Positions 699-10,907 of a stretch of DNA of 11,925 bases are shown piece by piece (within the stretch, counting starts at the first letter, position 1; each line of letters opens with the position of its first letter). Source of the stretch: a virus (taxonomy: Duplodnaviria > Heunggongvirae > Uroviricota > Caudoviricetes); the IMG/VR virus record IMGVR_UViG_2698536443_000025; one strand, 5' to 3'. The notes under the pieces are model-generated. The model was given only the letters and a program-made list of their open reading frames with translations, was not told the origin of the DNA and searched no databases. Both the position numbers and the translations under genes were made by a program.

Positions 699-713
699 GT
701 TGGAGTCATTACC
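691..713 (+). repeat. IS1 right terminal inverted repeat (IRR)
   Basis: ATCAATAAGTTGGAGTCATTACC is the reverse complement of the IS1 end GGTAATGACTCCAACTTATTGAT. Flanking DNA starts at 714 (AGCAATTCG...). Confidence 0.9.
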
Positions 714-733
714 AGCAATTCGATAAATCCGAT

Positions 734-1027
734 GTGAAAATCGAAATGGTTTTCCTTAACCCCAACACGGGCAAGGTTGAAACTACTTACCCTGTTTTCC
801 GTGGGGTAGTCGATTCCATCGGTATTAACATCGAACATGAAGATGATGAGTGTAAAAACGAATCAGAATTTCAGCTTAATAGTATCTGGGAAGTTCTAGA
901 TAAAAACGCTCGTAGTCATGCCTCCGATGGTATCCACCGTTCCTATGTTGGAAACGAGAACGATCTATTCTTCTCCCGTGCCGGGAAGTGGAACTCAGAA
1001 AGCAAGTGGCATTCATCGAAGAAATAA
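734..1027 (+). CDS. Tail assembly protein K-like N-terminal (MPN/JAMM-like, probably inactive) domain ORF; 5' end apparently truncated by IS1
   Basis: The frame is open from inside IS1 across the junction at 713/714; the first in-frame starts are GTG 734 and ATG 746, neither with a clear Shine-Dalgarno. The translation ...EDDECKNESEF...ARSHASDGIHRSYVGNEND... loosely aligns by eye to lambda gpK residues ~20-110 (PEDC...HSHPGGLPWLSEAD), with the JAMM histidine and aspartate replaced (RSH...G). The assignment is tentative. Confidence 0.45.
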   Translation: MKIEMVFLNPNTGKVETTYPVFRGVVDSIGINIEHEDDECKNESEFQLNSIWEVLDKNARSHASDGIHRSYVGNENDLFFSRAGKWNSESKWHSSKK

Positions 1028-1073: not shown

Positions 1074-1493
1074 ATGCTAAAAACTAGGCTTATCACCGAT
1101 TACATCAATTCTTTAATAGGTCAGGAGTTCGTTCAAGGCGAGAATGATTGCAATCTCATTGCATGTAAGATCATCGATATTCTCGCTGGTACTGACCTAT
1201 ATAATTCTCTTTATAAAAAATATTCAACTAAAGAAGAAGGCTTGAAAATCTGCAAAGAATTAAGCGGATATTCAAACATCCTTCAACCAATTAAGAAACA
1301 TTTCAAATTAGTCACTGATGATTTACAGGACGGCGACTTACTGGTCACAGCCCACAAATTAGGAAACCGTAATTATTATTCCGTAGTTCCTCATTATTCC
1401 GGTTATGGCCTCGTTGAAGAAGATGGTATCTGGATGACCATTCCTGTTTCAGACATTGACTATGAACAAGTTTATAGATTCGGGGGTGAATAA
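1074..1493 (+). CDS. NlpC/P60-family tail assembly protein (lambda gpK C-terminal domain-like)
   Basis: GGAGG at 1061-1065 lies 8 nt before ATG 1074. The translation has GENDC (catalytic Cys candidate), GDLLVTAH and HYSGYG, which parallel lambda K GVTDC / GDVLLC / HAAIYCG. The stop TAA overlaps the next gene start (TAATG at 1491-1495). The track ORF 918-1493 is the same frame extended upstream. Confidence 0.75.
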   Translation: MLKTRLITDYINSLIGQEFVQGENDCNLIACKIIDILAGTDLYNSLYKKYSTKEEGLKICKELSGYSNILQPIKKHFKLVTDDLQDGDLLVTAHKLGNRNYYSVVPHYSGYGLVEEDGIWMTIPVSDIDYEQVYRFGGE

Positions 1494-4400
1494 TGGGATT
1501 TGAAATATTGGTAGGCGCGGTTATTGCTGGTGCGTCTGCTGGGATGGCTGCTGCTGCAACATTTTCTGTTATGACCGCAGTCGCTATCGGTATGGCTGCT
1601 GGTGCAATGACCTTGATCGCTTCCACTGTAGGCGCACCAAAAACACCTAAAGTACAAAGCCCAGATAATGCGGTGACACTAGGAACATCAAACGATCCGA
1701 AAGCGGTGATACCAGTCGTTTTCGGTACTACCCGCACTGGCACAAACTGTGTTTACAAAGCAGTTTCTAAGCAAGAAAACAATAAGCTAGTGCAAATCTT
1801 CTCTGTAGCCGAGGGTGAAATCGACCATTACAAAGCACTCTTTATTGATAATAAAAATGTTCTTGTTGGTAAGAACATGACGATCCGTGATGGTATTCTC
1901 GATAAGGGCAACATTAAAGAAGAATATCGTAAAGTATTAGAAGTCGAGTTCCGCACGGGCAAGAATCCTAACACCGCTTTGTCGCTGGCAAAACGTCATT
2001 TAGGCTCAGACTGGACCGACGCTTTCAAGGGTAACGGCATTGCGACCATGTGTATTGTGTTGCGTCGCGATGACAAATCTCTTGCTGCTGGTGTTGATAT
2101 TCTCCAGCCAAATAGCCAGGTAGCAGTAGACGTTTGCGGCCTTAAAATCCGTAACCTTGAAACCAATGCTATTGAGGCTAGCACTAACGGCGTGGATCAG
2201 ATTTTCCACTACCTAACAAATGAAAAATATGGCTTATCCGTACCAATTGAAAACATTAACGTTGATTCATTCCTGAAAGTACGTAAACAAGTACGCCAGA
2301 TGGATCTACATTCAAACGGTGCATGTGATCCGAACGCCAGCTTTAAAGAAAACTTGACTAATCTTATGCAGACTTTCGGCGGGGTGATGTTCGAATCCTT
2401 TGGACGTATTACGCTGAAACTGGATGCTCCTGATATTGTTAAGCATACCTTCAATGAAGACAATATCATGATGGGTAAGGTATCACTGAAAACAGGTGGC
2501 ACTAACGGTTATTTCAATACCATTAACGCGATGTATCAAGAACCATCAATTGACTATTCAGAGCAAATGCTACGTTATCCGGCTGATGCTGAAAACGATG
2601 CTACTGTTCGCGCAGATGGTCGAATTATTGCTAAGGATGTAGAATATCGTTTCGTTAAGTCTAAAGACCAGATTGATAAACTTGCGAGTATTGAACGAAA
2701 TAAATCTCGTATCACTCAGGTTATCAGCTTTATGACTACTGACGCATTCACTGCCGAAGTATGGGACGTTATCAGCGTAACCTATGATGAATTGAAACTG
2801 AATAATTCTTTATGGCGTATTACTGCAATTGATCGCTCGATTGATTCTGGTATTGCTGGGATGATGACTATCACCGCCACAGAATATAATTCTCAGGTTT
2901 ATACTGACCTGAACTATGCGGCAACTCCAGACAATAGACCAAGTGGTTTACCGGATTCAATGACAGTACAGAAGCCTACTAATTTCAGAATTAAGGCAAC
3001 TGGTGAGACGATTTACGGTAAAAACGTTACTTTGACATGGGATGCACCGGAAGATTTTAACCGTTATGGTTTCCAGATTGATTACCGTGTAAGCGGATCA
3101 CCTAACTGGATTAAGCTGGGACAGACTTCACAGCAAATTTTCAGTGTCAATGCACTGGCAAAAGATCGTTCCTACGATTACCGAGTTTGTGCTTTCGGTA
3201 TCATCGCGCGATCCGATTGGGTAGAACTGATTAACCAGAATCCTACTGTTACCTATGAATTGCCGACTCCGGTTATTCGAATCAAAAATCAGGGTAGCAC
3301 GCCAGGAACTTTCGAAGGTAATGATCTGATTATCGAATGGGAAAATCAGCAACAATTAGATGTTGAGATCAACGGTGAAACTAACAAGTTTAGTGACCTG
3401 TTTGAAGCATACATTATCAAGGTGACTAACAAGGCTGGTAAGTCTATTCAGTACCGTACCCGCGATCCTGAATCATGGACTTATACGCTTGATATGAACC
3501 AATTTAACGGCCTTTCGCGTCAACTGACGGTAGAAGTATCAGCTAAGGGCTATAACAACTCAGAGAGCGCCCCAGCGCGTTTAGTGGCTATCAACCCACA
3601 ACATAAGCCAATGAAAGGTTTTAGTGCGCGTGGTGGCTTTAATACTGCGTTTGTTAGCTGGGCGGATGACGTAGAACATGACTATGCAGGGTCAATCATC
3701 CAGTATGCAACCGACAACACTTTCTCAGATGCAAGGGCAGTAAGTACGAATAGTGTTAGCCATACTTCCTTTGATATTGCTGACGGTGATTATTATATCC
3801 GTGGTGCTCACTACGATATTTTCGGTATGGATGATGCTGTTTGGTCTGAACCGTATTTCATGCAAATGAAGTCTACGATTAGTTGGGACGATCAGGACAA
3901 AGAAGCACTGGAAGACCTGATCGGTTTACAAGATCGCTTAGATGAAACTATCGCGGATGCTATTAAGCAAGCTGGCGCTAATGCCGATGCTAAAATTGAT
4001 GCAATGCATAAGCAAATCACTACCGAGACGGGTAAAACTGTTCAAGCCTCAGCCGATACCTTAAAGAGTCTGATTGCTTCTGGTGATAAGGCAAGTTCAA
4101 CTAAGATTGATCAGGTTAAAGCTGAACTGAAAGGCGATATCACCAAAGAAGTTAGCGCCTCCGCTACAACCCTGAAACAAGCAATTGCAACCAGTGAGGC
4201 AGCAAGCGCAAGTAAGATTGATCAAGTTCGGGTAGAAATGGATGGCAAGATTGCTGGTGTGAATCAGGAAGCAGATGTAAAAATCGATGCTTTGAAAGGA
4301 ACCATTAACAGCAAATACAATCTGGCAGTTAATGCAGATGGTCGTGTGGCTGGTATTCACATGAGCGCAACCAACGATCCGGCACAACCGACTAAAATCA

Positions 4401-5269
4401 TCTTTACGGCTGATAAAATTGCTGTAGCTCCGCAGAACGGGACCGATGTTTGCCCGTTTGGTATCGAAGGTAACAAGGTTTATCTCGATAATGCGATGAT
4501 TCGTAATGCTGCAATTGGTACAGCCCATATTAGTGATGCGGCAATTACTACCGCTAAGATCGGCAATGCTGCAATTAACAGCGCGAAGATTCAGGACGGG
4601 GCAATCACTAACGCCAAGATTGTAAATGGCGCAATTGATAACGCTAAAATCGGTAACTATATCCAGTCTTCCAACTGGAACGGATCGACCGGATGGCATA
4701 TCAACAAGAACGGTAATGCTACGTTCATGAATGCTACCGTTAAAGGTAATATCACGGCTGATTCTGGTACTCTGAACAACGTCACGATTAACTCTAGCTG
4801 TGTTATTAAGGGTATGCTTGAAGCTACTCAGGTTAAGGGTGATTTCGTTAAGGTGATTGGTCGTAAGTTCCCACACCGTGATGTTAACGTTGATAATGGT
4901 TATGGCGGCTATCCGCAAGGTACAGTAACCGTTCGCGTTGAAGATGATCACAAGTTCGATCGTCAAATCGTTATTCCGGCGATTAGTTTTGGTGGATTGC
5001 GAGCGCGTGAAGGGTCGAACAATAATACCTATTACGACACCTGTCGCCTGATTGTTCGTAAGAATGGGTCAGAGTTGTATAATAGGGCGTATGGCGGTAA
5101 TACTGGTCTTTACTCAGGTGTTATTGATATGCCAGCGGGTAAAGGTGCTGTGACCTTGACCTTTGAAGTGCAATCAAGCGCAATCAACAACTGGACGCCT
5201 AGCACATGGATCAGTGATTTAACTGTAATGGTAACTAAAAAAGCCACTACTGGTATTACTGTTTCTTAA
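1493..5269 (+). CDS. Central tail fibre / host specificity protein J (tip attachment protein) with an N-terminal gpI-like domain
   Basis: 1258-aa ORF with GGGGGTGA 4 nt before ATG 1493. The C-terminal ~170 aa (NATVKGNITADSGTLNNVTINSSCVIKG...DRQIVIPAISF...VIDMPAGKGAVTLTF...VMVTKKATTGITVS) parallels the lambda gpJ C-terminus (NANSGTLSNVTIAENCTINGTL...DRQIVVLPLTF...IVDMPAGRGNVILTF...VMVIKKQALGISVV). Residues ~100-130 resemble the gpJ N-terminus. Residues 1-95 (hydrophobic Ala/Gly-rich stretch, then APKTPKVQSPDN and AVIPVVFGTTRTG) resemble the lambda gpI C-terminus (APKARTPRIQTTDN, NVLPVLYGEMRVG). Confidence 0.9.
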   Translation: MGFEILVGAVIAGASAGMAAAATFSVMTAVAIGMAAGAMTLIASTVGAPKTPKVQSPDNAVTLGTSNDPKAVIPVVFGTTRTGTNCVYKAVSKQENNKLVQIFSVAEGEIDHYKALFIDNKNVLVGKNMTIRDGILDKGNIKEEYRKVLEVEFRTGKNPNTALSLAKRHLGSDWTDAFKGNGIATMCIVLRRDDKSLAAGVDILQPNSQVAVDVCGLKIRNLETNAIEASTNGVDQIFHYLTNEKYGLSVPIENINVDSFLKVRKQVRQMDLHSNGACDPNASFKENLTNLMQTFGGVMFESFGRITLKLDAPDIVKHTFNEDNIMMGKVSLKTGGTNGYFNTINAMYQEPSIDYSEQMLRYPADAENDATVRADGRIIAKDVEYRFVKSKDQIDKLASIERNKSRITQVISFMTTDAFTAEVWDVISVTYDELKLNNSLWRITAIDRSIDSGIAGMMTITATEYNSQVYTDLNYAATPDNRPSGLPDSMTVQKPTNFRIKATGETIYGKNVTLTWDAPEDFNRYGFQIDYRVSGSPNWIKLGQTSQQIFSVNALAKDRSYDYRVCAFGIIARSDWVELINQNPTVTYELPTPVIRIKNQGSTPGTFEGNDLIIEWENQQQLDVEINGETNKFSDLFEAYIIKVTNKAGKSIQYRTRDPESWTYTLDMNQFNGLSRQLTVEVSAKGYNNSESAPARLVAINPQHKPMKGFSARGGFNTAFVSWADDVEHDYAGSIIQYATDNTFSDARAVSTNSVSHTSFDIADGDYYIRGAHYDIFGMDDAVWSEPYFMQMKSTISWDDQDKEALEDLIGLQDRLDETIADAIKQAGANADAKIDAMHKQITTETGKTVQASADTLKSLIASGDKASSTKIDQVKAELKGDITKEVSASATTLKQAIATSEAASASKIDQVRVEMDGKIAGVNQEADVKIDALKGTINSKYNLAVNADGRVAGIHMSATNDPAQPTKIIFTADKIAVAPQNGTDVCPFGIEGNKVYLDNAMIRNAAIGTAHISDAAITTAKIGNAAINSAKIQDGAITNAKIVNGAIDNAKIGNYIQSSNWNGSTGWHINKNGNATFMNATVKGNITADSGTLNNVTINSSCVIKGMLEATQVKGDFVKVIGRKFPHRDVNVDNGYGGYPQGTVTVRVEDDHKFDRQIVIPAISFGGLRAREGSNNNTYYDTCRLIVRKNGSELYNRAYGGNTGLYSGVIDMPAGKGAVTLTFEVQSSAINNWTPSTWISDLTVMVTKKATTGITVS
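4505..4654 (+). repeat. Five tandem 30-bp coding repeats inside J (10-aa units NAAIGTAHIS / DAAITTAKIG / NAAINSAKIQ / DGAITNAKIV / NGAIDNAKIG)
   Basis: Direct reading of 4505-4654 shows five in-frame 30-nt units with the conserved core GC(N)GCAAT...GC(N)AAGAT. It is a coding repeat with no spacers, not a CRISPR array. Confidence 0.8.
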
Positions 5270-5288
5270 AAATTTAATTTTAATAATT

Positions 5289-5330
5289 AATCCCGCTTAA
5301 TTCTTTTGAGTTAGGCGGGATTATTTTTAT
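5289..5330 (+). terminator. Rho-independent terminator downstream of J
   Basis: Inverted repeat AATCCCGC (5289-5296) / GCGGGATT (5315-5322) followed by ATTTTTAT, 20 nt after the J stop codon. The loop is long (18 nt), so efficiency is uncertain. Confidence 0.55.
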
Positions 5331-5375
5331 CTAAATAATTTTGCCATTAAACTATATAAAAATATCGGGGGCGTA

Positions 5376-5654
5376 ATGACTGAAATTATATATGGCGGTA
5401 TCGGTGTTATCGCCTTAATTTGTGGTGGTCTTTGGAGACTTCACCGAAATCAATTAGCAACTGAAAATAGATTGTCGAAATTGGAATCCAGCGACGCATT
5501 GTTAAACCAGAAGTTTGAGACGATGCAGAATAACCATACTCAGATTGCTGAACGTGTTTACCAAATGGAACAAACACTACACGGTATAGAGAAGAAAGTG
5601 GTTGCGATGGATGCTAAATTTGACCAAGTTCTCGACATACTCAAACAAAAATAA
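5376..5654 (+). CDS. Membrane-anchored coiled-coil protein (92 aa), function unknown
   Basis: CGGGGG Shine-Dalgarno 5 nt before ATG 5376. N-terminal hydrophobic segment IIYGGIGVIALICGGLW, followed by a heptad-like coiled-coil region. First gene of a co-directional operon. Confidence 0.75.
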   Translation: MTEIIYGGIGVIALICGGLWRLHRNQLATENRLSKLESSDALLNQKFETMQNNHTQIAERVYQMEQTLHGIEKKVVAMDAKFDQVLDILKQK

Positions 5655-5672
5655 TAATAAAGGGGTGAATAT

Positions 5673-5843
5673 ATGAAGAATAAACTTAAGAAATATTTTG
5701 GTTATCTCTTGATTGTCGCCCTCACTTATAACGTAGCTATTAGACCTCTGCTAACGTCCTTTGGGCTTGAACTCCCGGCTATGACCGTGGATGAACAATT
5801 GCTAAGGACACTGGCGGGGGTCTTTTCGTTATTAGGGGGCTAA
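5673..5843 (+). CDS. Small hydrophobic protein (56 aa), not in the supplied ORF track
   Basis: AAGGGGTG Shine-Dalgarno 7 nt before ATG 5673. Translation MKNKLKKYFGYLLIVALTYNVAIRPLLTSFGLELPAMTVDEQLLRTLAGVFSLLGG with no internal stops. The stop TAA 5841-5843 sits 1 nt before ATG 5845 of the next gene, and the ORF fills an otherwise unexplained 190-bp gap in a tight operon. Confidence 0.6.
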   Translation: MKNKLKKYFGYLLIVALTYNVAIRPLLTSFGLELPAMTVDEQLLRTLAGVFSLLGG

Positions 5844-5844
5844 C

Positions 5845-6528
5845 ATGGCAACCAGTACCAATAAACGAAACGCTCTAAGGACTAAGAAAGCGTTACGGCA
5901 ATGGTCTGAAAAGGCAACCGATACATTCGAAAGGGCACTAGGGGAAGGGGCGATCTTTGCTTCCAGAGCACTCCAGAAGAAGATTAACAAGAATGTTGAT
6001 AGACCTACTCGATGGACTCAACAAGCTGTAGGTAATACCAACTACAAGAACCGATCAGGGACCAGACACCAAATCTTCATCAAGGGCGCAAGGGATAAGG
6101 ACAAGAAGATCGGCAGTCAGGATGACTATCTGAAACACTATTTCGATGGTGGCAAAATCAATAAGCTAGTGCCAATCGCCAACGGTAAGGTCTTAGACTC
6201 CCACGGGAACATTAAGGCCATCAAAGGCGGTAAGATGATGCGTAACATCGAAAACGGCAACTTCATCAAGGTAGAGAACAAGGAAGGGACTTTTATCATG
6301 AAGAAGTACAAGCCTAAGAAATCCCGAACCAAACGCGCTAAGAATGGATCGGCGGTGGCAAAACGTCGCTTAGAGAAACGCATCCAGAAACAGAGTAAGC
6401 GAATTGTTGCCGTTAAGTCGGATAAAATTTCTACTCGTTATTCGACGCTAGGATCGTGGGAAAGCAACGAAGCAATGATGCTTGAAAACATCAATAAGCA
6501 CATTAAATCGCGCATGAAATACGTTTAA
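5845..6528 (+). CDS. Lysine/arginine-rich basic protein (227 aa), function unknown
   Basis: TAGGGGG Shine-Dalgarno before ATG 5845. Long ORF with strongly basic composition (KKYKPKKSRTKRAKNGSAVAKRRLEKRIQKQSKR). No motif recognised. Confidence 0.75.
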   Translation: MATSTNKRNALRTKKALRQWSEKATDTFERALGEGAIFASRALQKKINKNVDRPTRWTQQAVGNTNYKNRSGTRHQIFIKGARDKDKKIGSQDDYLKHYFDGGKINKLVPIANGKVLDSHGNIKAIKGGKMMRNIENGNFIKVENKEGTFIMKKYKPKKSRTKRAKNGSAVAKRRLEKRIQKQSKRIVAVKSDKISTRYSTLGSWESNEAMMLENINKHIKSRMKYV

Positions 6529-6538
6529 TCAATAAATA

Positions 6539-6560
6539 CCCTCATAGAATCTTATGGGGG
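6539..6560 (+). promoter_or_regulatory. RNA hairpin sequestering the Shine-Dalgarno of the 6567 gene
   Basis: CCCTCATA (6539-6546) pairs with TATGGGGG (6553-6560) as 8 bp including one G-U, with a 6-nt loop. The GGGGG Shine-Dalgarno of ATG 6567 lies in the 3' arm. Confidence 0.4.
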
Positions 6561-6566
6561 TATAAC

Positions 6567-6914
6567 ATGGCTAAAAATATTTTCACTGAATTTCCTACTT
6601 ATCCGGTTGATCAGCTTTCCGGTATTTTTATTAATGGCATTAGCCCAGAATCTATGACCTATGATTTTGAGGCGAAGAGAGTTAAACATAAACAATATAA
6701 AGAATGTATCCGTGACCATGAAAAGGGGACCGTGTTTTGTGTCGCTACATTGGCTAAACGTCCTAAATATCGTTTTCGTGTAGGGCAAGAAGTCGATGTA
6801 GTTAATCCTTATAGCTTTAACTGTCTGGGTGATGCACGCGCGGTGTGTGTAGGCACTGCTCCTTATTATATCAAGGGTATGCGCTTTATTGGTTATATCT
6901 TCGAAATGATCTAA
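6567..6914 (+). CDS. Hypothetical protein (115 aa)
   Basis: GGGGG Shine-Dalgarno 6 nt before ATG 6567, co-directional operon context, and 9-nt spacing to the next gene. No motif recognised. Confidence 0.7.
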   Translation: MAKNIFTEFPTYPVDQLSGIFINGISPESMTYDFEAKRVKHKQYKECIRDHEKGTVFCVATLAKRPKYRFRVGQEVDVVNPYSFNCLGDARAVCVGTAPYYIKGMRFIGYIFEMI

Positions 6915-6923
6915 GGGGGTAAT

Positions 6924-7277
6924 ATGTTAAGTAAGCATTTTTCTCGCAAGGAATTTAAATGTAAATGCGGAAAATGTGATTATGATACAATCGACGCTGA
7001 ATTACTGGTGATTCTTGAGGATGTACGAGAGCACTTCGGTAAACCAGTGATTATTAACAGTGGGAACCGTTGCCCGACTCATAACAAGAATGTAGGCGGC
7101 GCAACCAATAGCTATCATGTTCGAGGCCGCGCGGCTGACATTGTTATCAAGGGTGTCTCGCCTGATATTGTTCATGCTTATCTTGATGGGAAATATCCTA
7201 CTCAATACGGCTTAGGAAAATATAAAACCTTTACGCATATTGATTCCAGATCAAAAAAATCACGGTGGAATGGATAA
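6924..7277 (+). CDS. Peptidase M15 family zinc metallopeptidase (M15_3/M15A-type cell-wall peptidase, endolysin-like)
   Basis: AAGGGGG Shine-Dalgarno before ATG 6924. Translation has FSRKEFKCKCGKC at the N-terminus and SGNRCPTHNKNVGGATNSYHVRGRAADI...FTHID, the His/Asp/His zinc-ligand pattern of M15-type D-Ala-D-Ala carboxypeptidase-like phage peptidases. Recognised from memory, not searched. Confidence 0.8.
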   Translation: MLSKHFSRKEFKCKCGKCDYDTIDAELLVILEDVREHFGKPVIINSGNRCPTHNKNVGGATNSYHVRGRAADIVIKGVSPDIVHAYLDGKYPTQYGLGKYKTFTHIDSRSKKSRWNG

Positions 7278-7280
7278 AAC

Positions 7281-7308
7281 AAAAGCGCCTCTGGTGGGCG
7301 CTTTTTTG
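7281..7308 (+). terminator. Rho-independent terminator ending the accessory operon
   Basis: Stem AGCGCC (7284-7289) / GGCGCT (7297-7302) with a 7-nt loop, followed by TTTTT (7303-7307), immediately after the TAA at 7275-7277. Confidence 0.8.
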
Positions 7309-7383
7309 TTAGAATATGCTGGCGACGTTAGCTATATTTCTGACTATTTTTTCATTATAGACAAATATACCGCAGAAGATAAA

Positions 7384-7626
7384 GTGGTATTTGATGAAGC
7401 AGATCCGTCACTGGTTGAAGCAATGAAAGAACCGGAACCAGTAGAAGAAACTCCGGTAGTGGAACCTGTCATTGAAGAAGTTCAGCCAGTAGTTGAAGAA
7501 GTACCGGAAGTTAACGCAGAATCTCCGGTAGCCAACATTTTCTCTGACGAAGCAGAGCATCGTTCTCCGGTACATGACACAGAAACATTTTGCGATCTTA
7601 CTGGTTTCCAAAACTACAATAATTAA
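7384..7626 (+). CDS. Acidic Pro/Glu/Val-rich protein (start uncertain: GTG 7384 or ATG 7423)
   Basis: Clear GNN-rich codon periodicity in the frame ending at TAA 7624-7626 (EPEPVEETPVVEPVIEEVQPVVEEVPEV...). The track start at 7240 is unlikely because it would overlap the preceding gene and contain the terminator hairpin. No strong Shine-Dalgarno at either candidate start. Confidence 0.4.
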   Translation: MVFDEADPSLVEAMKEPEPVEETPVVEPVIEEVQPVVEEVPEVNAESPVANIFSDEAEHRSPVHDTETFCDLTGFQNYNN

Positions 7627-7636
7627 TTCTTATAAA

Positions 7637-7673
7637 TAGTAGTGAATATTATTTTATTGAGGATTCACTACTA
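7637..7673 (+). promoter_or_regulatory. 11-bp perfect inverted repeat overlapping the RBS and start codon of the 7673 gene (operator or translational hairpin)
   Basis: TAGTAGTGAAT (7637-7647) and ATTCACTACTA (7663-7673) are exact reverse complements separated by 15 nt. The spacer holds the GAGGA Shine-Dalgarno (7659-7663), and the right arm ends on the A of ATG 7673. Confidence 0.5.
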
Positions 7674-8671
7674 TGAATACTACTTTAGCAAAGGATATCG
7701 AATTTACCGCAAAAAGCAAACGTGCGACCCCTCCGGTCGAATATGAAACCAGAATCATTAAAGTTTGTCAAGTGCATGGATGGTTATACAGTGGTTTTGT
7801 GCTTCCTGTAAAGAAACCATTCCAGAACACCAAAGTTTGCATAGAAGTTAACGGAAAGGTTAAAACGCCATGTATTAGTCATGTTCTAACTGGTCAGTTT
7901 ACTGGCAAAGATAGAGTATCACCGCCTAAGAAGAAGTTTAGATTTACCGAAGAAGAACACTTAGAAAACGCTCGCAAGTTCTACAAGCCGATAGGGTGGG
8001 ATGTGTTAGGTCTGGCTGAACCTTATCAGGGTGTTGACACTAAACTAATTCTTCGTTGTAAGTGCCACGGAAAGATTCACAAGAAAGGTGATTTACACAA
8101 TAACCGCAGACAAGGCGGGTTAACATGCCCTTTGGTTAGGGGGGTACTTAAATCAATTCAGAACGGTAGAAAACAGGTTATCAGAAACAAGTTTGCACAG
8201 CGCCCTATGCACTTTTATCTAATTCGTGTTGGCGAGAAGTTTTTCAAATATGGAATTACCACTCGCAAAGATCCGATGCAACGGGTAAGAGAACACCAGA
8301 AGCACACCAGCGAGAAAATCACCTTTGAATGCTCACATTTGTTTAACATTGGATGGAAAGCTGGTGATTTAGAAATGGGGATTAAAAAGAATATTCAGGG
8401 CAAGAAAATCCCACGTAAGGTAATGAATAGCGGATTCACAGAAACGCTACCGATTAGCAAGCTGAAAGATGTTAAATCATTCATCAATGAATACATCCAC
8501 ACCAACCCATCTAAGCCAATGTATTTTGATGATACCAACGCAATCAATCTGAACAACTACATTAGTGATGAAGACATAGAACGAGATTTATCGCAGTGGA
8601 TGAATGCACCGTTAGCTGATTTAATACCGGAAGACTTAGAACTCGATTTAAGCCCATTAGAGACACTCTAA
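7673..8671 (+). CDS. T5orf172-domain (GIY-YIG superfamily) protein with Cys/His-rich N-terminal region and acidic C-terminal tail
   Basis: 332-aa ORF with GAGGA Shine-Dalgarno. Residues ~185-215 FYLIRVGEKFFKYGITTRKDPMQRVREH fit the T5orf172 signature (...KIGxTTRxPxxR...). The N-terminal ~180 aa carry CQVHG, C...C and CKCHGKIH motifs suggesting zinc binding. The C-terminus is acidic (EDLELDLSPLETL). Confidence 0.75.
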   Translation: MNTTLAKDIEFTAKSKRATPPVEYETRIIKVCQVHGWLYSGFVLPVKKPFQNTKVCIEVNGKVKTPCISHVLTGQFTGKDRVSPPKKKFRFTEEEHLENARKFYKPIGWDVLGLAEPYQGVDTKLILRCKCHGKIHKKGDLHNNRRQGGLTCPLVRGVLKSIQNGRKQVIRNKFAQRPMHFYLIRVGEKFFKYGITTRKDPMQRVREHQKHTSEKITFECSHLFNIGWKAGDLEMGIKKNIQGKKIPRKVMNSGFTETLPISKLKDVKSFINEYIHTNPSKPMYFDDTNAINLNNYISDEDIERDLSQWMNAPLADLIPEDLELDLSPLETL

Positions 8672-10442: not shown

Positions 10443-10472
10443 CGCCCCTACCGCGTATTATAACGATAGGGG
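10443..10472 (-). terminator. Hairpin plus U-run (minus strand) directly upstream of the recombinase start, with a TATAAT hexamer in its loop
   Basis: On the minus strand: GCCCCTA-(16-nt loop containing TATAAT)-TAGGGGC followed by GTTTTTGTTT, ending ~10 nt before ATG 10424. The stem is 7 bp. Confidence 0.5.
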
Positions 10473-10487
10473 CTAGGTGATTAAAGA

Positions 10488-10907
10488 TTAAAGAATTTCA
10501 CGGCAGCTAATCAGGGAATAAGACGTATCACCTTTTTTAACATCAAATATAGGCGCGCCATCTACAGAATGCAGATATTTGATGTAGGATTTACCATCTT
10601 CGGAACCATAATATTCTTCTTTCTCGTTCTTATCTTCTTTCAGTTTTGGGCTTTTGATTGTTTTATCAAATACCGGATCGTTGAAAGCAAATTGACTATT
10701 ATCATCATTCACTCGAACCTTTACACCGATAAAACCACGGTATTTGCCAGACGGCGCATGATAATAACGGTCGCCATCACTCAGGTAGCGTGTATCATCT
10801 CCTTTATATTCGAAGTAGGAATTGCACACATAATAGGTATAGGTATTAGCATTCGCAGCACCAACCAAACCCAGAGCAAGAACAACACCAGCGATAATCT
10901 TTTTCAT
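10488..10907 (-). CDS. Secreted (signal-peptide) protein, 139 aa, function unknown
   Basis: AGAGGAA Shine-Dalgarno 8 nt before the ATG. N-terminus MKKIIAGVVLALGLVGAANA is a typical Sec signal peptide with an A-N-A cleavage motif and no lipobox cysteine. The mature part is Tyr/Asp/Lys-rich with two Cys. Confidence 0.75.
   Translation of the reverse strand: MKKIIAGVVLALGLVGAANANTYTYYVCNSYFEYKGDDTRYLSDGDRYYHAPSGKYRGFIGVKVRVNDDNSQFAFNDPVFDKTIKSPKLKEDKNEKEEYYGSEDGKSYIKYLHSVDGAPIFDVKKGDTSYSLISCREIL

Follow-up and report, generated by a model that had tools for sequence, protein, structure and literature searches.

Five co-directional ORFs on the plus strand lie between the J-like tail tip gene and the recombinase gene of an Escherichia coli prophage, enclosed by two strong hairpin terminators, and this position raises the question of whether they are accessory cargo or part of the core late programme of the phage. 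The stretch of DNA analysed here (11,925 nucleotides, referred to as the window) is the right end of this prophage, which measures ~37 kb (37.3 kb). An earlier note, made from the sequence alone, had proposed a moron-type accessory operon in a slot resembling the b-region of lambda, possibly acting in exclusion or abortive infection, and had named an unusual lysis or tail-accessory set as a further possibility. It is the last possibility that fits the evidence: with moderate confidence, we interpret the five genes as the far end of the late operon, delimited by terminators, and as a core lysis-plus-assembly block of an uncharacterised phage lineage.

The head genes of the prophage are Cronusvirus-like and its tail tip is GTA-like. 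The lineage is that of a temperate siphophage which combines a Cronusvirus/phiHAP-1-type head with an RcGTA-type tail tip and encodes a large serine integrase; it is carried by about 1% of complete E. coli genomes and its hosts are Enterobacterales. A literature search for an E. coli prophage inserted in hicB and encoding a serine integrase found no relevant paper.

Organisation and boundaries of the five-gene block

The anatomy given in the earlier note, with its five genes, two terminators and spacers of 1-38 nt, was confirmed from the sequence (Table 1), the successive spacers measuring 18, 1, 38 and 9 nt. The descriptions of a membrane-anchored coiled-coil protein, a hydrophobic 56-aa protein, a basic 227-aa protein and an M15 peptidase were likewise borne out by composition and Pfam. 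Relatives in E. coli, Salmonella and Providencia keep the hairpin distal to J, and the changes in its stem are compensatory. The downstream hairpin was predicted on the minus strand; the plus strand likewise reads as A-run, stem and T-run, and this hairpin is kept in all four lineages compared.

Table 1. Features of the five-gene block and its boundaries (positions in the window)
Feature	Position	Strand	Properties or basis
Intrinsic terminator hairpin after the J-like tip gene, upstream block boundary	5288..5323	+	16 bp stem then T-run; dG -24.2 kcal/mol, z -9.5
TTTGCC(A) motif between terminator and ORF1 RBS, possible regulatory site	5340..5346	+	conservation
ORF1, 92 aa, N-terminal TMD and C-terminal coiled coil	5376..5654	+	
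ORF2, 56 aa, hydrophobic, one TMD	5673..5843	+	
ORF3, 227 aa, strongly basic	5845..6528	+	
ORF4, 115 aa, conserved beta-rich protein	6567..6914	+	
ORF5, 117 aa, Peptidase_M15_3 zinc peptidase	6924..7277	+	
Hairpin terminator, downstream block boundary	7281..7305	.	T-runs on both sides; dG -14.7, z -4.2

Every start in the block is preceded, 5-7 nt upstream, by GGGG(G), with GGGGG at ORF1, ORF3, ORF4 and ORF5 and GGGG at ORF2. The near-identical GGGGG-type RBSs described before are thus present at all five genes, but they are not specific to the block: a GGGG RBS was found at 18 of the 38 annotated prophage genes, including those for the portal, the major tail protein, the tape measure and J, and the AAGGGGTAA-type RBS is common to the block and to portal, tail tube, TMP and J. 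The block uses the phage-wide late RBS. Its GC content also matches that of the structural genes.

Of the four lineages compared, three carry the TTTGCC(A) motif, and the fourth (L003) reads TCTGCCA, with one mismatch. Its assignment as part of a sigma-70 promoter was rejected, as there is no -10 element at the correct spacing, and a promoter scan of the plus strand from J to ORF1 found no sigma-70 promoter.

The block co-diverges with core genes of the phage

Prophages of E. coli, Salmonella and Providencia all keep the order J, ORF1, ORF2, ORF3, ORF4 and M15 peptidase gene, and the block was found in every relative examined. Identity to the Providencia copy amounts to 55% for ORF1, 68% for ORF2, 30% for ORF3, 59% for ORF4 and 63% for ORF5; for the core genes it is 73% (J), 62% (DUF6950) and 69% (recombinase). 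Judged by these identities, the block co-diverges with J, DUF6950 and the recombinase and has descended vertically within one phage lineage. In viral contigs in which J is only ~40% identical, ORF1 to ORF4 still stay together 3' of J, in three gene arrangements. A tblastn search of 50,697 phage records revealed no relatives of ORF1, ORF3 or ORF4 in known phages, and no plasmid-borne or other mobile copies of the block were found. Rather than across unrelated prophages, the genes travel together only within one phage lineage.

These observations bear on the proposal that the block is a mobile accessory (moron) operon for abortive infection or anti-phage defence, in which the peptidase would be a toxic effector restrained by the upstream genes. 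The terminator-bracketed location between tail genes and integrase would suit such an operon, as would the fact that four of the five proteins are without a characterised function. However, a scan of the five proteins and two neighbours with PADLOC models gave no match to ORF1-ORF5 at E values up to 0.1, and the block is retained in all relatives, diverges together with the core genes, has no copies in mobile contexts and shares GC content and RBS with the structural genes. In addition, ORF5 is close to bona fide endolysins of lytic phages and is the only endolysin recognised in the prophage. The gene content that varies among relatives lies between the M15 gene and the recombinase, and the truly variable, moron-like slot starts at ~7278, right after ORF5 and its terminator. 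A defence function is thus highly improbable, and neither the placement of the block in a b-region-like accessory slot nor its assignment as an exclusion or abortive-infection module could be upheld. The profile-HMM searches that had been suggested identified ORF5 as an endolysin and linked the ORF3 family to phrog_1924, while they returned no defence model and no family for ORF4.

ORF5 is predicted to be the only endolysin

ORF5 matches Peptidase_M15_3 (PF08291) over its full length, scoring 96.7 bits where the cut-off is 23.2 (E=1.1e-27), and the endolysin family phrog_894 with E=1.9e-45. The zinc ligands are intact (H65-VRGRAA-D72, corresponding to H-x6-D, and FTH105ID), and over its full length the protein shares 60-64% identity with proteins annotated as endolysins in SP6/K1E-like podophages. 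No TMD, signal or SAR sequence was detected in ORF5, and annotation and PHROG scans did not reveal another endolysin, holin or spanin among the remaining prophage proteins. By its sequence, ORF5 is a cytoplasmic M15 (LAS-type) zinc peptidase that is predicted to be enzymatically active and to serve the prophage as its single endolysin. As it lacks an export signal, it would require a holin to reach the cell wall. In the distant lineage L064, the slot after ORF4 is filled by an unrelated GH24 lysozyme.

ORF1 and ORF2 are candidates for the holin function

ORF1 has one hydrophobic N-terminal TMD (~residues 4-20) with GG...GG, followed by a charged coiled-coil C-terminus. In all lineages and homologues its N-terminal tip is acidic and free of basic residues, and basic residues stand directly past the TMD; for this reason an N-out/C-in topology with a cytoplasmic coiled coil is predicted, by the positive-inside rule only. 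ORF2 (GRAVY +0.63) has a basic N-terminus, one TMD (~8-30) and a short hydrophobic C-tail, and adjoins ORF3 upstream in all arrangements. ORF1 is the sole annotated late-strand prophage protein of less than 150 aa that scores as TMD, and the late strand encodes no small membrane proteins other than ORF1 and ORF2. Both resemble holins in architecture: they are small, combine a TMD with a charged hydrophilic terminus and are encoded in the same terminator-bounded unit as ORF5. Because no other small late membrane proteins are encoded, ORF1 and/or ORF2 are regarded as holin candidates that probably supply the membrane function at the holin level; ORF2 may be a holin, an antiholin or a holin co-factor.

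In PHROG searches, the window copy of ORF1 matched phrog_12015, of unknown function (4e-5), and an Rz-like spanin family (0.036). Distant ORF1-like proteins matched the phrog_1296 holin (2e-7), the phrog_739 Rz-like spanin (1.3e-4) and the phrog_937 hemolysin (2e-4), and a second distant protein matched phrog_1296 weakly (0.024); the holin match belongs to a distant homologue and not to ORF1 of the window. The Rz-like matches of the family (0.036 to 1.3e-4) probably reflect the shared composition of TMD plus coiled coil. The topology of an i-spanin, with an N-in TMD and a periplasmic coiled coil, is not that of the ORF1 family, which is predicted to be N-out/C-in. A distant ORF2-like member matched only phrog_2024, of unknown function (1.1e-6). 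The ORF1 family is restricted to this phage lineage.

Exclusion genes such as T5 llp or lambdoid cor adjoin receptor-binding genes. Since ORF1 is always found directly 3' of J, even where ORF2-ORF4 are inverted or are separated from ORF1 by an endonuclease VII gene, ORF1 and ORF2 might not be lysis proteins at all and instead act in tip-linked superinfection exclusion, or as membrane factors of tail-tip assembly or injection, the true holin being unrecognised or absent. The distance between the lysozyme gene and ORF1/ORF2 in one group of relatives (Type C) would agree with this. However, ORF5 needs some holin and there is no other small late membrane protein, and the families matched by ORF1-like proteins are lysis families (holin, Rz-like and XhlA-like), with none related to exclusion. 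Moreover, the late-gene RBSs, the place behind the late operon and the lack of a detectable sigma-70 promoter of their own fit poorly with expression in the lysogen. We consider an exclusion or tip-factor role quite improbable, and a holin-level function of ORF1 and/or ORF2 is the interpretation that we prefer.

ORF3 and ORF4: possible roles in tail completion or lysis

ORF3 has a pI of 10.65 and a net charge of +37 (56 K+R versus 19 D+E), and all 21 members of its family are strongly basic, with net charges of +21 to +40. The family has only 12 representatives among 1.84 billion proteins. Its members share a conserved N-terminal domain of ~115 residues with the motifs DRPTxFT, QxxYL, DGG and GN[IL]. 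By hhalign, the family was related to RcCronus gp44/P0033 with a probability of 97.6% (E=2.8e-12). Sixteen of the 21 members matched phrog_1924 'minor tail protein', a label that is computational, and two matched phrog_27 tail completion/Neck1 (best 3.6e-5). On the strength of these profile matches, ORF3 is homologous to the phrog_1924 family and is probably a tail-completion-type assembly protein. P0033 itself gave E=0.11 with Pfam Minor_tail_Z. An identity of ORF3 with lambda gpZ was not supported, at an hhalign probability of 0.08%, in a weak test that used a single sequence and a single template.

ORF4 is always located directly 3' of ORF3. Searches for its family or fold, including Pfam, PHROG and PDB profiles, gave no significant match, and its assignment as a tail terminator (lambda gpU, SPP1 gp17 or R4C gp18) was not supported by any similarity, the hhalign probability being about 0.1% against lambda gpU and the R4C terminator. 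PDB profile searches with the ORF3 and ORF4 alignments yielded nothing significant and no PDB chain fitted the ORF3 family; the recurring top match, adenovirus pre-protein VI (E=0.25-1), was treated as noise. Structure prediction of the two proteins, as had been suggested, was performed with AF2 and produced poor models (pLDDT 43 for ORF3 and 62 for ORF4). We regard ORF4 as a candidate partner of ORF3 and infer that completion of the tail or neck is the most likely task of both. A lineage precedent for neck genes 3' of the tip gene is R4C, whose J-like megatron gene is followed downstream by the genes for the tail fibre and the tail terminator (PMC10276861).

No ORF with a lipobox was found on either strand between positions 5200 and 7700, and none that could credibly encode an o-spanin or u-spanin was found on either strand of the whole 37.3 kb prophage, while the Rz1-like protein of UAB_Phi78 was detected as positive control. 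The earlier statement that a lipoprotein o-spanin is missing thus extends to the entire prophage. As no spanin or outer-membrane disruptor was identified, the lysis pathway as described here is incomplete. About 15% of the phages of Gram-negative hosts are without spanins, and phiKT uses a cationic peptide (10.1101/515445).

ORF1-ORF5 might form a dedicated spanin-less lysis cassette, with ORF1 or ORF2 as holin and ORF5 as endolysin. The cationic ORF3, together with ORF4, would then take the place of the spanin and weaken the outer membrane from the periplasmic side after the action of holin and endolysin, or would instead control the timing of lysis. The missing lipoprotein spanins, the precedent of phiKT and the uniformly basic ORF3 family are in line with this. 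So is the gene neighbourhood: in two arrangements ORF2-ORF3-ORF4 are co-oriented with and followed by non-orthologous endolysins (M15 or GH24), the L064 unit being on the strand opposite to J and the tail genes, an arrangement that a pure lysis operon would explain no less well, and ORF2 and ORF3 are 1 nt apart or overlapping in all lineages. Furthermore, gp49, the R4C homologue of ORF3, is absent from the 12 proteins modelled in the virion. On the other hand, conservation in ORF3 resides in the N-terminal domain, which is rich in motifs and contains invariant P, Q, Y, G and N, whereas its basic linker is variable and partly deleted in versions of 183-188 aa, unlike an amphipathic antimicrobial-type peptide. 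The family is linked to the tail proteins of phrog_1924 and phrog_27; in Type C relatives ORF3-ORF4 are directly followed by tail chaperones and TMP, with the lysozyme elsewhere; and the Cronusvirus homologue of ORF3 does not adjoin an endolysin. We judge a dedicated lysis cassette to be unlikely. It is also decidedly unlikely that ORF2-ORF3-ORF4 constitute a new kind of lysis accessory system, made up of three proteins and combined with either an M15 or a GH24 endolysin, in which ORF2 would be the gate and the cationic ORF3 and a beta-barrel ORF4 would disrupt the outer membrane in place of spanins or otherwise finish the disruption of the envelope. If true, phages without spanins would have a second answer besides the phiKT disruptin, to which the system is unrelated, and the members of phrog_1924, now called 'minor tail protein', would be relabelled as lysis proteins.

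Proposed function of the block and its implications

In the preferred reading of a core lysis-plus-assembly block, ORF1 (N-out/C-in) and/or ORF2 (N-in, one TMD) would open the membrane for ORF5, perhaps with one of them as holin and the other as its co-factor or antiholin, in the manner of Lcc6 and the LambdaSo pinholin, and ORF5 would then cut the cell wall as the single endolysin. ORF3 and ORF4 would serve tail or neck completion and be encoded 3' of the tip gene like the R4C tail terminator. Transcription would probably start at the late promoter and read through the conserved terminator after J, which would give a lower dose than that of the structural genes.

With this interpretation a false lead is removed, as the block consists of phage core late genes and is not a defence island. 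An uncultured temperate Enterobacterales phage lineage is documented that has three unusual features in its lysis region, namely the absence of a spanin, holin candidates from families without a characterised member, and two conserved non-membrane genes before the endolysin slot, which is filled with unrelated enzymes in different lineages. The prophage offers a genetically tractable E. coli case for studying how the outer membrane is breached by phages that have no spanin. With regard to annotation, it is relevant that the genomic company of the phrog_1924 family, named by computation only, is ambiguous between tail and lysis.

Comparison with known systems

As in a canonical lambda-type cassette, a single late unit encodes both the small membrane proteins and a cytoplasmic endolysin, and the endolysin slot is mosaic (M15 versus GH24). 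The block differs in that there is no spanin, that ORF3-ORF4 are inserted between the membrane genes and the endolysin, and that the cassette is located after the tail genes rather than before the head genes. Endolysins of the SP6/K1E type (UAB_Phi78 gp53, Proteus phage PM93, BigMira) resemble ORF5 in size (114-117 aa), in their zinc-ligand motifs and in having no signal. In SP6-like phages, however, the endolysin is followed by membrane proteins of 30-47 aa and an Rz1-like lipoprotein, none of which resemble ORF1-ORF4; common lysis partners were rejected and the endolysin alone is shared.

Lcc6 of the Shewanella prophage LambdaSo, a protein of 65 aa, is needed for lysis at the holin level; its TMD is N-terminal (residues 5-22) and is followed by a cytoplasmic tail. 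The gene is one of several small ORFs clustered where the tail genes and int-xis end the prophage (10.1101/2024.01.23.576932). Likened by description and not by sequence, Lcc6 is similar to ORF1 in its architecture and in the topology predicted for ORF1, while its genomic position is like that of ORF1 and ORF2 alike. ORF1 differs in being longer and having a coiled coil. Besides Lcc6, LambdaSo has its own pinholin, a SAR endolysin and spanins, none of which is present in this prophage. Mu releasin gp25 is another small TMD protein that acts at the step of holin/endolysin release; no DUF2730 (releasin) match was found among the block proteins.

The phrog_1924 members RcCronus gp44 and R4C gp49 share with ORF3 the motifs of the N-terminal domain, the size and the strong basic charge, while the Cronusvirus homologue differs in its place, being the last gene before cos and not following the tip gene. 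With gp28, the disruptin of phiKT, ORF3 has in common that a strongly cationic, signal-less protein is encoded in the lysis region of a spanin-less phage of a Gram-negative host. However, gp28 is an amphipathic peptide of 56 aa, whereas ORF3 proteins have 180-240 aa, a conserved globular-type domain and tail-annotated homologues.

Organisation of the host prophage

The window forms the right end of a prophage of ~37 kb. Among 5,426 complete E. coli genomes, 55 contain this prophage; a plasmid search found no copy. In the closest complete copy, which is inserted in hicB, the genes run from a GIY-YIG nuclease and TerS through a short regulatory segment that includes Rha to TerL, adaptor and portal. 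Next come the protease-capsid fusion (662 aa), stopper, tail tube, fibre, chaperones, tape measure protein (TMP) and distal tail protein, and then hub, DUF6950, a 1258 aa J-like tip protein and ORF1-5. A stretch of variable content separates these from a large serine recombinase. For TerL, portal and capsid, distant relatives were identified in Rhodobacter phage RcCronus, Dinoroseobacter phage R4C, phiHAP-1 and VP882. In the window, the match to the intact prophage begins at codon ~113 of the 217 aa hub. Because IS1 interrupts the hub gene, this copy of the prophage is probably defective and incapable of tail formation. Another IS, ISKpn26, is present in the neck region of the closest complete copy.

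The J-like protein begins with a tandem pair of hydrophobic stretches rich in Ala and Gly (residues 5-22 and 26-43), which are kept in full-length J-like relatives at only about 40% J identity. Lambda J-type proteins do not usually have such a pair, which might have a bearing on membrane insertion during DNA delivery.

Features of the window with their coordinates
Feature	Position	Strand	Properties
IS1 (InsA/InsB)	1 to about 710		inside baseplate hub gene
Rest of hub	711-1027		match to intact prophage begins at 711
J-like N-terminus	1493-1630		two hydrophobic segments
Upstream hairpin (post-J terminator)	5288-5323		dG -24.2, z -9.5
TTTGCC(A) motif	5340-5346		between post-J terminator and ORF1 RBS
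ORF1	5376-5654	+	92 aa; one N-terminal hydrophobic segment, then coiled-coil-like region
ORF2	5673-5843	+	56 aa; hydrophobic
ORF3	5845-6528	+	227 aa; pI 10.65, 56 K+R vs 19 D+E
ORF4	6567-6914	+	115 aa
ORF5	6924-7277	+	117 aa; Peptidase_M15_3 domain, E=1.1e-27
Downstream hairpin	7281-7305		dG -14.7, z -4.2
Inh-like ORF	7270-7626		Inh match at 7367-7609
ORF7	7673-8671		332 aa; phrog_681 'endonuclease', 4e-20
Terminator	10444-10473		strong; after the 139 aa ORF
139 aa ORF	10488-10907	-	signal-peptide-like N-terminus; adjoins recombinase

ORF1-5 belong to the phage core

All five ORFs were recovered just as the earlier note describes them, and so were the features that it gives of the proteins (ORF1 with membrane segment and coiled coil, hydrophobic ORF2, highly basic ORF3, M15 peptidase ORF5), of tight packing at 1-38 nt (spacers of 18, 1, 38 and 9 nt) and of bracketing by terminators, which correspond to two stable hairpins. 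A GGGG(G) motif was indeed found 5-7 nt 5' of every start, but this ribosome-binding site (RBS) is not specific for the block, as GGGG precedes 18 of 38 genes in the prophage, among them portal, tail tube, tape measure and J. The TTTGCC(A) motif upstream of ORF1 occurs in three of four compared lineages, with one mismatch in the related locus L003; its sequence is inconsistent with a sigma-70 promoter, and a late regulator may bind there.

The order J, 92 aa, 56 aa, 183-239 aa, 115-119 aa and M15 protein is kept in a second E. coli lineage, Salmonella and Providencia, and the amino acid identities of ORF1-5 to these relatives run parallel to those of J, DUF6950 and the recombinase. Both flanking hairpins persist across these relatives, their stems having changed in a compensatory manner; the GC content of ORF1-5 is continuous with that of the tail genes, and none of the five proteins matched a PADLOC model. 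Therefore, the block is vertically inherited phage core, and the moron-type slot starts directly after the ORF5 terminator. This contradicts the proposal of an accessory operon in a slot resembling the lambda b-region: the interval between peptidase and recombinase is what differs per relative, containing an Inh-like fragment, UvsW-like helicases, a UvsY fragment, a DEAD helicase or a GIY-YIG insertion. The anti-phage, exclusion or abortive-infection function suggested for the block does not hold up either; given vertical inheritance and the negative PADLOC search, a defence module is very improbable.

The segment downstream of the ORF5 terminator shares ~80% nucleotide and 67% amino acid identity with internal residues 75-169 of the 241 residues of Inh from Krischvirus (RB49/Phi1-like T-even) phages. 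Inh is an inhibitor of the prohead protease gp21. The Inh-like ORF resembles a remnant, having no RBS and neither end of Inh and being located just 3' of a terminator. UvsW-like helicase and UvsY-like fragments occupy the same slot in relatives, and inh and uvsW are adjacent in Phi1, which suggests repeated capture of T-even DNA at this position, perhaps by homing-endonuclease activity. The slot is also a hotspot for nuclease genes, represented by ORF7 and by L002 26622-27686 and L015 5540-6121 in related loci. The C-terminal part of ORF7 resembles the GIY-YIG nuclease encoded at the other prophage end (31% over 98 aa), and in one E. coli relative an additional GIY-YIG gene of 193 aa has been inserted precisely in the interval from the ORF5 terminator to the Inh fragment.

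A second variable slot, on the lysogeny side and likewise of moron type, is the recombinase-side region around 10474-10848, which overlaps the 139 aa ORF. In the closest complete prophage 10474-10848 is swapped for other sequence encoding an 81 aa TMD protein; in relatives from Salmonella and Providencia, OmpW/Lom-like genes occupy this position.

ORF5 is a predicted endolysin of a phage without recognisable spanin

The closest phage relatives of ORF5 are annotated endolysins of SP6/K1E-like lytic podophages (60-64% identity, full length), and ORF5 is an ordinary member of this known endolysin family. Its zinc ligands (H-x6-D and a distal His) are intact, it has neither a signal nor a SAR segment, and PHROG scans and RefSeq annotation yielded no other endolysin, holin or spanin among the remaining prophage proteins. 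Taken together, these features argue that ORF5 is the endolysin of the phage and would require a holin. No lipobox ORF was found near the block on either strand, and a scan of the whole prophage on both strands, embedded frames included, yielded no credible lipoprotein, while the Rz1-like protein of UAB_Phi78 was detected as positive control. The lack of a lipoprotein o-spanin, already pointed out in the earlier note, was thus corroborated, placing the phage among the ~15% of Gram-negative phages in which no spanin can be recognised (10.1101/515445).

ORF1 and ORF2 are candidate holin-level proteins

Hydrophobic segments of membrane-spanning length are confined in the prophage to ORF1, ORF2, the TMP, the J N-terminus and an opposite-strand gene of 81 aa past the integrase. 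The N-tip of ORF1 and of all its homologues is acidic, their TMD is rich in glycine, and basic residues follow it straight away; the acidic tip and the basic residues predict an N-out/C-in topology with a cytoplasmic coiled coil, opposite to that of an i-spanin. The ORF1 family is limited to this phage lineage, and its distant members match phrog_1296 holin (2e-7), an Rz-like spanin (1.3e-4) and an XhlA-type hemolysin (2e-4), lysis proteins that all combine a TMD with a coiled coil. ORF2 carries a single TMD behind a basic N-terminus, and the sole match reached was phrog_2024, which has no assigned function. By elimination and resemblance, we infer that ORF1 and ORF2 are candidate holin-level proteins. 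One of them may be the holin and the other an antiholin or co-factor, for which Lcc6 of LambdaSo, a 65 aa TMD protein whose gene adjoins xis and which is required at the holin step (10.1101/2024.01.23.576932), offers one model.

ORF3 and ORF4 define small families

Very few sequences make up the ORF3 family, with 6 clusters in a set of 5.8 billion proteins and 12 representatives in one of 1.84 billion, and every member is strongly basic, with a net charge of +21 to +40. The distant member P0033 matches phrog_1924 'minor tail protein' over its full length (2.4e-33), and profile-profile comparison of the family with RcCronus gp44/P0033 gave a probability of 97.6% (E=2.8e-12) over the N-terminal ~115 residues. 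In total, 16 of 21 family members matched phrog_1924, and 2 of the 21 also matched phrog_27 tail completion/Neck1 (best 3.6e-5). In RcCronus and R4C the phrog_1924 gene, which encodes gp44 and gp49 respectively, is the last before cos. No PDB chain matched the ORF3/phrog_1924 family, and hhalign of the family against lambda gpZ was negative. As R4C gp49 is not among the 12 structural proteins modelled in the virion by cryo-EM (PMC10276861) and the Rhodobacter phage paper gives no proteomics, the public 'minor tail protein' label of phrog_1924 appears to be computational only, without experimental basis.

ORF4 forms 16 clusters, all from Enterobacterales prophages, and has homologues in viral contigs at 33-43% identity; no match was obtained in Pfam, PHROG, NCBIfam or PDB sequences. 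Four of the five protein families of the block are without a characterised member.

Gene arrangements in distant relatives and interpretation of the block

In viral contigs with a J about 40% identical, ORF1-4 occur in three arrangements.

Arrangements of ORF1-4 downstream of J
Type	Locus	Gene order
A	window	J, ORF1, ORF2, ORF3, ORF4, M15
B	L064	J, ORF1; opposite strand: ORF2, ORF3, ORF4, GH24 lysozyme (Pfam Phage_lysozyme, 1e-11)
C	L017-L027; L025 plus L062	J, ORF1, endonuclease VII, ORF2, ORF3, ORF4, then directly tail chaperones, TMP

This distribution marks ORF1-4 as an old unit associated with the tip gene. That ORF1 and ORF2 are tip-linked membrane or exclusion proteins is rather unlikely in our estimation.

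A T4 endonuclease VII-type gene (phrog_423, 4e-36; Pfam Endonuclease_7 and its dimerisation domain; e.g. L019 5356-5832) was observed between the ORF1-like and ORF2-like genes in most distant relatives (L016-L023, L025-L027). In L064 an EndoVII-like ORF follows the inverted ORF2-4 unit (17055-17519), and the gene is absent in L024 and in the enterobacterial lineage. The tail module of the related phages shows at least three gene orders, with the hub and distal tail protein genes of L018 inverted relative to J; recombinase-mediated rearrangement, tandem prophages or assembly artefacts are possible sources.

The unrelated endolysins after ORF4 in types A and B represent mosaicism as in lysis cassettes, whereas in type C the tail genes after ORF4 provide the company of morphogenesis genes, and a lone GH24 lysozyme adjoins the recombinase and the distal tail protein. 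In one of the gene orders this lysozyme and the serine recombinase are both placed between the TMP and the distal tail protein. In R4C, tail fibre and tail terminator genes are located downstream of the J-like megatron gene (PMC10276861), so late structural genes can occupy the post-J position in this lineage. We regard a composite late block as the probable reading, in which ORF1 and ORF2 would act as holin-level membrane proteins, ORF3 as a tail-completion-type protein with ORF4 as its partner and ORF5 as endolysin, with transcription of all five reading through the conserved post-J terminator. A spanin-less cassette of ORF2-ORF5 dedicated to lysis, in which polycationic ORF3 together with ORF4 acts on the envelope, is the main rival but is unlikely.

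The block is useful for annotation and offers a tractable spanin-less case in E. coli, although it will not surprise a specialist. Among the possibilities raised in the earlier note, that of an atypical set for lysis or tail functions agrees with these findings. Compared with known lysis cassettes, the block is an unusual variant in which the spanin is absent, the holin candidates are uncharacterised, and two conserved genes precede an interchangeable endolysin slot.
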